In this document: piece after piece, positions 931-1,500 of the stretch
Position numbering within the stretch: the stretch's first letter is position 1
Layout of the letters: each line of letters opens with the position of its first letter
Source of the DNA: Prorocentrum cordatum
Lineage: Eukaryota
DNA: 64,000 nucleotides
Direction of reading: 5' to 3'
NCBI GenBank assembly: GCA_963575745.1
Contig: CAUYUJ010000082.1
Coordinates: 1 to 64,000 of the forward strand
The notes under the pieces: generated by a model
The model's input: only the letters and a program-made list of their open reading frames with translations
What the model was told of the DNA's origin: nothing
The model's database searches: none
Program-made: the position numbers and the translations under genes

Positions 931-1500
931 ATGTGGGAGAGGCTCACGAACCACGCCGTCACAGGGGTGGTCTCCTATCTCACGAGGTGCCCGCAGGTGC
1001 CATCTTGTCCCGCCTGTCCCGTGTGCTCGTTGGCGTGCGGGTCGCCAGCTCCTTGCCCAGGGTGCTCACTGCAGTGCCCAGCGATCCCGCCGTGCGCGGA
1101 GGTCGCCCCGGCGGTGTGCCCCTCGCCGCCGCCCTGCCCGACGCCGGCGTGCCCGGCGTGTGGGGCCTGCCCCGCGCCAGAGGCCGCGCCCGCGCCCGCG
1201 GGGCCGGAGGCGGCGGCGCCTTCGGCGGCGGCCGTGCTGGCGAGCGACGTCGCCATCGACCTGCGCTCCCTGGCCGCGGGCCTGGTGGGCGGCGCGGTGG
1301 GCTTCCTGCTCGTCGCCGCGTGCGTCGGCTTCTGCTGTGTCGTGCTGCGGAGGGACGCTCGCCCGCGTGTTCGGCATCCTGCTGGCTGCCTCAGTGATGG
1401 CGGCGGTGGCGACGAGTCGCTGGGTGTACGTCTTCTACGCAGGCGAGGTGGTGTGGCACCAGCACTTGAATCTGGGGCGGGTGGCATTGTCCGAGGCTGA
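931..1500 (+). CDS. ORF0: Cys/Pro-rich (CPxC repeats) predicted single-pass membrane protein, 189 aa
   Basis: ATG immediately after repeat A1; CPACP/CPGC motifs; hydrophobic LAAGLVGGAVGFLLVAACVGFCCVVL followed by basic RRDARPRVRH. Confidence 0.6.
   Translation: MWERLTNHAVTGVVSYLTRCPQVPSCPACPVCSLACGSPAPCPGCSLQCPAIPPCAEVAPAVCPSPPPCPTPACPACGACPAPEAAPAPAGPEAAAPSAAAVLASDVAIDLRSLAAGLVGGAVGFLLVAACVGFCCVVLRRDARPRVRHPAGCLSDGGGGDESLGVRLLRRRGGVAPALESGAGGIVRG

Follow-up and report, generated by a model that had tools for sequence, protein, structure and literature searches.

Positions 859–7717 of a 64,000-nucleotide (nt) stretch of the Prorocentrum cordatum genome (GenBank assembly GCA_963575745.1, contig CAUYUJ010000082.1, positions 1 to 64,000 of the forward strand; the whole stretch is referred to as the window) are spanned by a single retrotransposon with split direct repeats, as delimited by a blastn self-comparison, and the first gene of this element, here called ORF0, is the subject of this report. 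All features of the element discussed below lie on the forward strand. Its left end is the terminal repeat A1 (859–925). ORF0, an open reading frame (ORF) of 189 codons plus a stop (931–1500), follows as the first cistron and overlaps the start of a gag-like ORF (1397–2434); next comes a pol ORF of 1590 amino acids (aa; 2513–7285) that wholly contains, in another frame, a tyrosine recombinase (YR)-like ORF of 421 aa (5277–6542), and the right end of the element occupies positions 7337–7717. We regard it as probable that ORF0 is a selected accessory gene, encoding a small membrane protein, of a clade of DIRS-order elements with a PAT-like layout; the clade occurs among the gene models of P. cordatum and on marine contigs.

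The ATG of ORF0 sits 6 nt past A1, where it is the first ATG after the repeat, and the frame closes with a TGA at 1498–1500. The translated product contains 18 Cys, 27 Pro and 34 Ala. Its Cys/Pro-rich segment (residues 20–81, positions 988–1173), with four CPxC motifs and nine CP dipeptides, leads through an Ala/Pro linker and an amphipathic pre-membrane stretch (residues 82–113, 1174–1269) into a hydrophobic segment of residues 114–139 (1270–1347), LAAGLVGGAVGFLLVAACVGFCCVVL, which reaches a Kyte-Doolittle maximum of 2.62 over 19 residues (KD19) and is predicted to form a transmembrane (TM) helix. Cys131 and a CC pair at residues 135–136 lie near the C-terminal end of this helix, and it is followed directly by the juxtamembrane polybasic stretch RRDARPRVRH (residues 140–149, 1348–1377), in which five of the ten residues are Arg. 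The tail is encoded across the first 35 gag codons (1397–1500, 104 nt), the ORF0 frame being +1 relative to gag. A preliminary description of the locus had proposed an extra gene of a tyrosine-recombinase retrotransposon, a 189-aa frame opened by the first ATG after A1, with CPxC motifs, an Ala/Pro linker, a hydrophobic segment of about 26 residues containing CC and a basic tail running over the gag start; coordinates, repeats and translation agree with it throughout, including the small size of the protein and its one strong TM helix.

AlphaFold2 (AF2), used with a small family alignment, predicts for the window ORF0 a helix at residues 99–143 with a predicted local distance difference test score (pLDDT) of 77–89 over residues ~110–140. 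Confidence is confined to this region (mean pLDDT 51): the Cys/Pro segment scores below 50 and is, like the tail, predicted to be disordered, and the structure prediction suggested in the preliminary description thus places a confident helix at the TM segment and nowhere else. The charges flanking the helix, RRDARPRVRH after it and D/D/R before it, favour an inside location of the C-terminus. We consider insertion of the ORF0 product into a membrane to be likely. ORF0 has no match in Pfam, in the ESM Atlas (no usable lead, best score 0.76) or in a PDB-sequence search, and a word-indexed protein search found none either, its 8000 candidates probably being dominated by low-complexity words.

Because all three forward frames are free of stops over 931–1350, at a GC content of 0.76, the open frame alone is no evidence for a gene. 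The GC content at third codon positions (GC3) is 0.89 in the ORF0 frame compared with 0.71 and 0.71 in the other two; it lies at 0.9–1.0 over 1081–1320, before the signal passes to the gag frame around 1350. Among the antisense frames there is one with a GC3 of 0.88.

ORF0 sequence is carried by five other copies or contigs: P0003, P0004 and P0011, all of them P. cordatum gene models, P0014, a 194-aa sequence from a 781-nt contig, and L001, a metagenome contig whose gag is 76% identical to that of the window. When 1.84 billion representatives were scanned with HMMER at E ≤ 1e-3, ORF0 gave four matches, among them P0003 (1.6e-29), P0014 (6.3e-23) and P0011 (4.2e-10); the fourth, P0015, is a Thr/Ser-repeat protein and was rejected as spurious. 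L001 holds a 5'-cut ORF0 frame whose stop lies 104 nt inside gag, the same layout as in the window. Over the ungapped N-terminal stretch common to the window, P0003 and P0014 all Cys are kept (11/11), compared with 18 of the 41 other residues. In the C-terminal half 15 residues are invariant in five copies, including seven of the 26 helix residues; D106, D110 and R112 of the pre-membrane stretch, G120, G121, G124, A129, C131 and L139 of the helix, and R144 and R148 of the polybasic stretch belong to this set.

The dN/dS check proposed in the preliminary description was carried out between the window and L001. Over 78 non-overlapping ORF0 codons (Nei-Gojobori) the proportions of nonsynonymous and synonymous differences (pN and pS) are 0.35 and 0.54, a ratio (omega) of 0.50, and the same alignment read in the other two frames yields 0.85 and 1.75. 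The gag ORF is under strong purifying selection in the same pair (omega 0.136, pS 0.61), and on this weak estimate ORF0 would be constrained, far less than gag (0.50 versus 0.136). In the overlap between the two genes the synonymous difference of gag is 0.32 as opposed to 0.64 in the rest of gag, with a nucleotide identity of 0.88; this halving implies some extra constraint there. Elsewhere in gag, another block of 35 codons (246–280) is also low in synonymous difference (0.41). The preliminary description had held that ORF0 would lose its standing if it were missing, freely frameshifted or neutrally evolving across the family; what we find is five other copies, some of them broken, and a frame that is non-neutral by the measures above. 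ORF0 is, in our judgement, very likely a real gene under selection.

The contig sequence P0014 reads, in one frame, B-end-like sequence, A and then ORF0 (compare 7337–7536 and 859–931 of the window), an order as expected if element ends were joined in a circle or in tandem. In P0014 the hydrophobic peptide that A encodes (in the window CILWAAAVLVAQVL, in another frame) becomes a signal-like N-terminal extension of ORF0, and the difference in frame between window and P0014 points to a 1-nt indel just ahead of the ORF0 ATG.

Scanning metagenome contigs with the gag profile yielded four loci, L001 to L004, in the last of which the 81 nt available upstream of gag are too few to inform on ORF0. The gag of L002 is 35% identical to the window gag over the matched part. 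This locus possesses a repeat pair (1660–1726 and 7601–7667) of 67 nt, the length of A1, at 97% identity, and 10 nt past the first repeat stands the ATG of an ORF0 whose predicted product begins with a signal-like stretch and contains six Cys, a TM helix and basic residues, the basic cluster of this type being KKRLTK. Two relatives of the L002 type, P0021 (132 aa) and P0022 (178 aa), share 45% identity, with islands of identity in the signal-like start (14/17), the Cys region (15/18) and a C-terminal helix (15/20); in the TM helix 6 of 26 residues are identical and the segment is still hydrophobic. In the AF2 model of P0021 (mean pLDDT 61) a helix at the N-terminus is followed by a small hairpin within the Cys region, by a long TM helix and by the C-terminal helix. 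L003, with a gag 26% identical to that of the window, has the same layout of gag, pol and overprinted YR, and its hydrophobic ORF0 of 137 codons overlaps gag by 65 nt. Database relatives of the L003 type form a cluster of 28 members plus three sequences at 80–85% identity, and the 16 relatives that were aligned, 80–99% identical to L003, are all 137 or 138 aa long. Positions 52–118 of L003, in the leader upstream of its ORF0, form a 67-nt perfect-type hairpin (an inverted repeat, 89.6% complementary).

ORFs of at least 60 aa that are TM-like (KD19 ≥ 1.9) are rare in the three loci (4/28, 2/23 and 1/24, the ORF0s included), which makes it unlikely that chance put such a frame in the same position in all three informative lineages. 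Small ORFs with predicted membrane-protein character thus recur upstream of gag in two lineages of this element type that have diverged deeply. The three ORF0 types could share an ancestor and have diverged strongly, or one design could have been acquired independently.

How the two overlapping genes might be expressed from one RNA is suggested by the distribution of start codons. The gag ATG at 1397 lies 466 nt downstream of the ORF0 ATG and in the +1 frame. Between the two starts there is no ATG in any frame in the window, L001 or L003, and there is one in L002, compared with 2.1, 1.6, 3.3 and 7.1, respectively, expected from shuffled sequence; only one of the 47 same-length control windows downstream is equally depleted. 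The ORF0 AUGs have moderate to weak contexts (positions −3/+4 G/U, U/G and C/C) and the gag AUGs strong ones (G/G, A/G, A/C and G/G). An AUG-free ORF0 body combined with weaker ORF0 and strong gag contexts therefore fits leaky scanning on a single RNA, and we rate the chance that gag is reached by scanning past the ORF0 AUG as somewhat better than even. The two frames stand in a +1 relation in the window and in L003, whereas in the L002 family the relation is −1 and the stop overlaps the start; P0001, P0002, P0005–7, P0012, L002, L003 and L004 each have their own gag Met 8 to 23 residues before a conserved N-terminal motif. The variable frame relation and the separate Met both speak against a frameshift or a spliced fusion as a conserved feature. 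An ATG at 884, within A1 and in the gag frame, opens a frame of 516 codons (884–2434) that runs stop-free into gag and would provide it with an Arg-rich extension of 171 aa; GC3 gives no coding support to this frame. The equivalent frame of L001 is closed by a stop at 157–159, upstream of the L001 gag ATG.

The assignment of the element to the DIRS order is based on the layout of its termini, and its remaining genes are putative members of the usual set. A1 is matched by A2 (7470–7536) over 67 nt at 97.0%, and A2 stands between B1 (7337–7471) and B2 (7585–7717), which match each other over 135 nt at 98.5%; the order A1 ... B1-A2-B2 is that of PAT-like or Ngaro-type elements. Neither the blastn self-comparison nor tblastn found a second copy within the window. 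The pol ORF combines a putative, divergent reverse transcriptase (RT)/RNase H region with a methyltransferase-like C-terminal domain. Matches to the Pfam family RVT_1 stay below threshold (E 0.089 and 0.022 for the window pol and 1.4e-4 for L003; 12.9–22.1 bits against a cut-off of 29.6), and the domain aligns with the pol of both L003 and L002. Positions 3113–5062 also show a weak match, far under the Pfam cut-off, to the C-terminal (RNase H) domain of hepadnaviral polymerases (E 0.11).

Catalytic residues of tyrosine recombinases follow the order R...K...HxxR...H/W...Y. The window YR ORF aligns with L003 4290–5696 and L002 5698–6627, and the alignment of the three loci contains, in the expected order, invariant R228-P-G, K268, R341-H342, W365 and R372-R373, the last followed by a consensus Y. 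The ORF has no significant match in Pfam (best Phage_int_SAM_1, E 0.11) or in a PDB profile search, and its putative identity is recognised by the order in which R, K, RH, W and RRY occur as invariant positions and not by any library. Overprinting of this frame on pol is also seen in L003 (4290–5699 inside 2207–6463). The C-terminal domain of pol (window 6500–7282) has the motif order ELFSGSAG ... GVPC ... ENP in common with L003 and L002. We take the order ELFxGS ... PC ... ENP to be that of a cytosine-5 methyltransferase rather than a Dam-type enzyme; Pfam and PDB profile searches with the domain gave no match and do not confirm this.

The gag-like ORF matches no Pfam family, and the label 'gag' consequently rests on position only. 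It is conserved, measures 345–498 aa and is located ahead of pol in the window as well as in L001, L003 and L002. Its start in the window is that of the homologues P0001 and P0002; the best homologue is a P. cordatum protein at 95% identity, and seven of the 13 gag matches carry the name of this species. Viral contigs scanned with the gag and pol profiles contained no relatives. Around position 2359 (2355–2365) the window gag lacks about 31 nt that are present in L001 and in the X1 contigs, where they encode NLISIEMKFR..., a difference also seen by tblastn. The deletion shifts the frame and the window copy is therefore not autonomous; its ORF0, pol and YR frames remain open. The GC content of the window is ~0.66 over its first 6 kb. 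Ahead of A1, (GGA)n arrays flank a 300-nt island that is richer in AT (240–400 and 700–800), and arrays of the ATG/ATGATG type occur after B2 (7600–9300), again at 18200–19400 and, inverted, at 43900–44500.

Several observations weigh against our reading of ORF0 as a selected gene for a membrane protein and temper the strength with which we put it forward. The window ORF0 lacks a signal peptide, with no N-terminal hydrophobic stretch at KD19 ≥ 1.6, though ~113 residues must cross the membrane. Its omega of 0.5 comes from one pair and 78 codons in a protein-guided alignment with near-saturated synonymous sites, and in the overlap (1397–1500) the gag frame has an omega of 0.18 and the ORF0 frame one of 4.45, the ORF0 tail evidently following gag. 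P0014 loses the frame in its second half, and among the sequencing runs X1 and X2, whose short Logan contigs cover ORF0 thinly, there is an X2 contig in which 151 nt are skipped (1121 to 1273) and an X1 contig in which 83 nt are (1312 to 1396); broken copies are to be expected in a decaying family, yet they limit any claim of universal ORF0 integrity. Among the indel entries listed for the runs none lies between 894 and 1475, and we draw no conclusion from this. The window copy itself is dead through its gag deletion, and no sequencing run listed as containing the stretch is recorded as RNA. The L002 ORF0 is frameshifted just after the TM helix, although the shifted frame still encodes the tail of its relatives and ends in a TGA overlapping the gag ATG as TGATG. 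Because copies of the L003 type are mostly 94–99% identical, their intact length may reflect youth; their topology also differs, with an N-terminal hydrophobic stretch and about two helices and with no polybasic stretch. Sequence homology among the three ORF0 types is not significant in single-pair BLASTP (E 0.001 to 0.2), and hhalign across types returns probabilities of 2.5% and 0.3%. As regards leaky scanning, Kozak-type context rules are, to our knowledge, not established in dinoflagellates.

With these reservations, the anatomy, the conservation, the distant equivalents and the AUG depletion are what the analysis shows, and topology, acylation, oligomerisation and function of the protein are what we infer. 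ORF0 would be translated as the first cistron of the element RNA, beginning just after the left repeat, while a fraction of ribosomes would leak past its weaker AUG to the strong gag AUG with no AUG in between. Its single TM helix would, by the positive-inside rule applied to the flanking charges, be oriented with the N-terminus out and the C-terminus in. A proline-stiffened, Cys-rich stalk would then face the outer or lumenal side, possibly disulfide-linked, as the resemblance of its CPxC and Pro run to an immunoglobulin hinge suggests, and the cytosolic face would present potentially palmitoylated Cys next to the Arg-rich stretch. By analogy, the protein may link particles or ribonucleoprotein of the element to a membrane and act as an envelope-independent factor for transmission or assembly, as has been proposed for sORF2 (see below). 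A role of any kind in membrane coupling or transmission is the mechanism best supported by this analogy, and we see it as a realistic prospect that nevertheless falls short of even odds. That ORF0 is a true cell–cell fusogen appears unlikely, and it is about as doubtful that the whole clade of YR elements of dinoflagellates and related marine protists would encode a small fusogen or transmission protein and be infectious without an envelope gene.

[quoted passage not shown] ORF0 likewise is a small accessory ORF upstream of gag and in the same orientation (in the window, L001, L002 and L003), and, as far as sORF2 is characterised in that account, the two have in common one TM helix with a predicted N-out/C-in orientation, a polybasic patch just after it, a poorly conserved primary sequence and elements devoid of a conventional env. 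They differ in that the host of ORF0 is a unicellular alga and its element uses a tyrosine recombinase and split direct repeats instead of an integrase and long terminal repeats (LTRs), and in that ORF0 has ~113 residues before the helix, 18 Cys, an overlap with gag and no N-myristoylation motif. There is no detectable sequence similarity between ORF0 and sORF2. The smORF2 of nackednaviruses, located upstream of the core gene, has been reinterpreted as FAST-like in the same account (PMC11952523); it resembles ORF0 in being a small TM gene that comes before the capsid gene in a reverse-transcribing element without an envelope, but belongs to exogenous fish viruses, spans 75–114 aa and is, according to that account, often myristoylated.

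The preliminary description had also compared ORF0 with the reovirus FAST proteins themselves (p10, p13, p14, p15 and p22), which are described as proteins of less than 200 aa with a single TM helix and a juxtamembrane polybasic cluster (PMC11952523). Part of this analogy stands: ORF0 has 189 aa, one hydrophobic segment with a KD19 of 2.62 coinciding with the AF2 helix 99–143, Cys at the predicted cytosolic end of the helix, a position ahead of gag and the polybasic stretches RRDARPRVRH in the window and KKRLTK in the L002 type, the latter feature missing in the L003 type. In p10 a palmitoylated di-Cys lies at the border of membrane and cytosol, and the Cys of ORF0 are similarly placed. FAST ectodomains are short, ~20–43 aa, and bear a myristate or a hydrophobic patch. 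Here the analogy fails: the window ORF0 has ~113 residues before the helix and starts with MWERL in place of MGxxxS/T, the L002 and L003 types start with ML and MV and equally lack an N-myristoylation motif, and the L002 type has a signal-like N-terminus, which FAST proteins do not. FAST and sORF2 proteins constitute a functional class and not a homologous family, and ORF0 cannot be filed with them because the short-ectodomain and myristoylation features are wanting and the L003-type topology differs. The broader suggestion of an envelope-, fusogen- or anchor-like protein fares similarly, in that a small TM protein kept in the family is supported and a likeness to retroviral-type Env is not. 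Env proteins of retroviruses and errantiviruses are large glycoproteins with a receptor-binding part, a fusion peptide and heptad repeats, and they are encoded downstream of pol; ORF0 has 189 aa, lies upstream of gag, matches no Pfam family and has no ectodomain that AF2 predicts to be ordered.

Among DIRS-order elements the nearest in organisation is SymbioDIRS-Dnmt3 of Symbiodinium (de Mendoza et al. 2018, PMC5890265), which, as presented in its main text, shares with the window element the A-coding-B-A-B repeats, a dinoflagellate host, an RT too divergent for Pfam, a methyltransferase domain in pol and a separate YR ORF. Symbiodinium DIRS RTs are described there as aligning poorly with Pfam seeds, and the main text contains no occurrence of 'gag', 'transmembrane' or 'envelope'. 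PAT-like, Ngaro and DIRS1 elements share a Gag-like ORF1, RT/RNase H, YR and split direct repeats with the window element according to the main texts of PMC6681497 and PMC8547959, the former describing an Ngaro/DIRS element with three ORFs (Gag-like, RT/RH and YR), and the word 'transmembrane' is absent from both main texts. The overprinting of YR on pol corresponds to the 'long ORF overlap' of DIRS1-type elements. Our literature search, which covered these sources in their main text, found no membrane-protein ORF in DIRS-order elements, in agreement with the statement of the preliminary description that no standard one was known.

Two alternatives accept that ORF0 is translated and assign it another purpose. 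It could be a long regulatory upstream ORF (uORF) in which the act of translation, and not the peptide, matters, throttling Gag by ending inside gag. The arrangement of the genes agrees with this, since in the window, L001 and L003 ORF0 runs across the start of gag and in the L002 family it meets that start as TGATG, and so do a tail unconstrained in its own frame, a low-complexity ectodomain predicted to be disordered and a constraint (omega 0.5) far weaker than that on gag. A regulatory uORF, however, needs no TM helix, yet a strongly hydrophobic one is kept in three lineages, even where identity has fallen to 6/26; the retention of every Cys (11/11), the conserved peptide islands of P0021 and P0022 and the GC3 signal in the ORF0 frame all speak for the peptide, and 132–189 codons would be an unusual length for such a uORF. 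We deem this explanation improbable. Alternatively, ORF0 and gag could form one protein through +1 frameshifting or removal of a short intron, yielding a membrane-anchored Gag that would be comparable to glyco-Gag, the form of Gag with an N-terminal extension in murine leukaemia virus. The gene models P0003, P0004 and P0011 do join the ORF0 frame to the gag frame, and the lowered synonymous divergence in the overlap could be read in the same sense; but the three models make the junction at three different places, as would happen with decayed copies or errors of gene prediction, each of the gag relatives has a Met of its own near the conserved N-terminal motif, the frame relation is not conserved across lineages and the stop in L001 closes the gag frame upstream of its ATG. 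A fused protein is, in view of this, decidedly improbable.

The remaining two explanations deny ORF0 a function in the element. Were it a chance open frame in a GC-rich leader, with coincidental look-alikes, one would expect the stop-free forward frames of 931–1350, a GC3 periodicity inflated by Ala/Pro/Gly-rich low complexity (the antisense frame at 0.88 being a case in point) and the want of Pfam, Atlas or cross-lineage matches. One would not expect Cys to be retained so much better than other residues (11/11 against 18/41), pN to fall below pS in the ORF0 frame only, the L002 and L003 types to have independent intact relatives, TM-like ORFs to be otherwise rare in these loci or ATG depletion to be specific to the ORF0 body. 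This explanation is already disfavoured, and we give it very little weight. Equally remote is the notion of a captured fragment of a host membrane-protein gene, the passive passenger of one family: the Cys/Pro-rich stalk does resemble cell-surface or hinge-type host sequence, and retroelements do take up host ORFs, but in the scan of 1.84 billion representatives ORF0 appeared solely in connection with this gag or else on short contigs that bear the repeat of the element, and a gene of the same design occupies the same place in three lineages.

In published descriptions DIRS-order elements carry gag, RT/RNase H, a tyrosine recombinase and, in some cases, a methyltransferase, and a gene for a membrane protein would be an addition to this repertoire. 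Its recurrence at one position in three deeply diverged lineages, together with the AUG-free body, points to a conserved and translated fourth or fifth gene, and the combination of a small TM ORF with an ATG-free leader offers a cue for the annotation of further elements. A precedent for such a gene is known in LTR retrotransposons in the form of sORF2, as set out in the preprint cited above (PMC11952523), and the equivalents of ORF0 in distant lineages go beyond what the preliminary description contained. If the fusogen reading were true, the elements could pass between cells, for instance during gamete fusion, feeding or symbiotic contact, and the sORF2/FAST-like strategy would extend from insect LTR elements to another order of retroelements and to unicellular hosts. 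If ORF0 serves membrane coupling or cell-to-cell passage, it would help to explain how these elements have spread in dinoflagellate genomes and between lineages, and small FAST-like accessory proteins would be a general solution among reverse-transcribing elements rather than an insect peculiarity.

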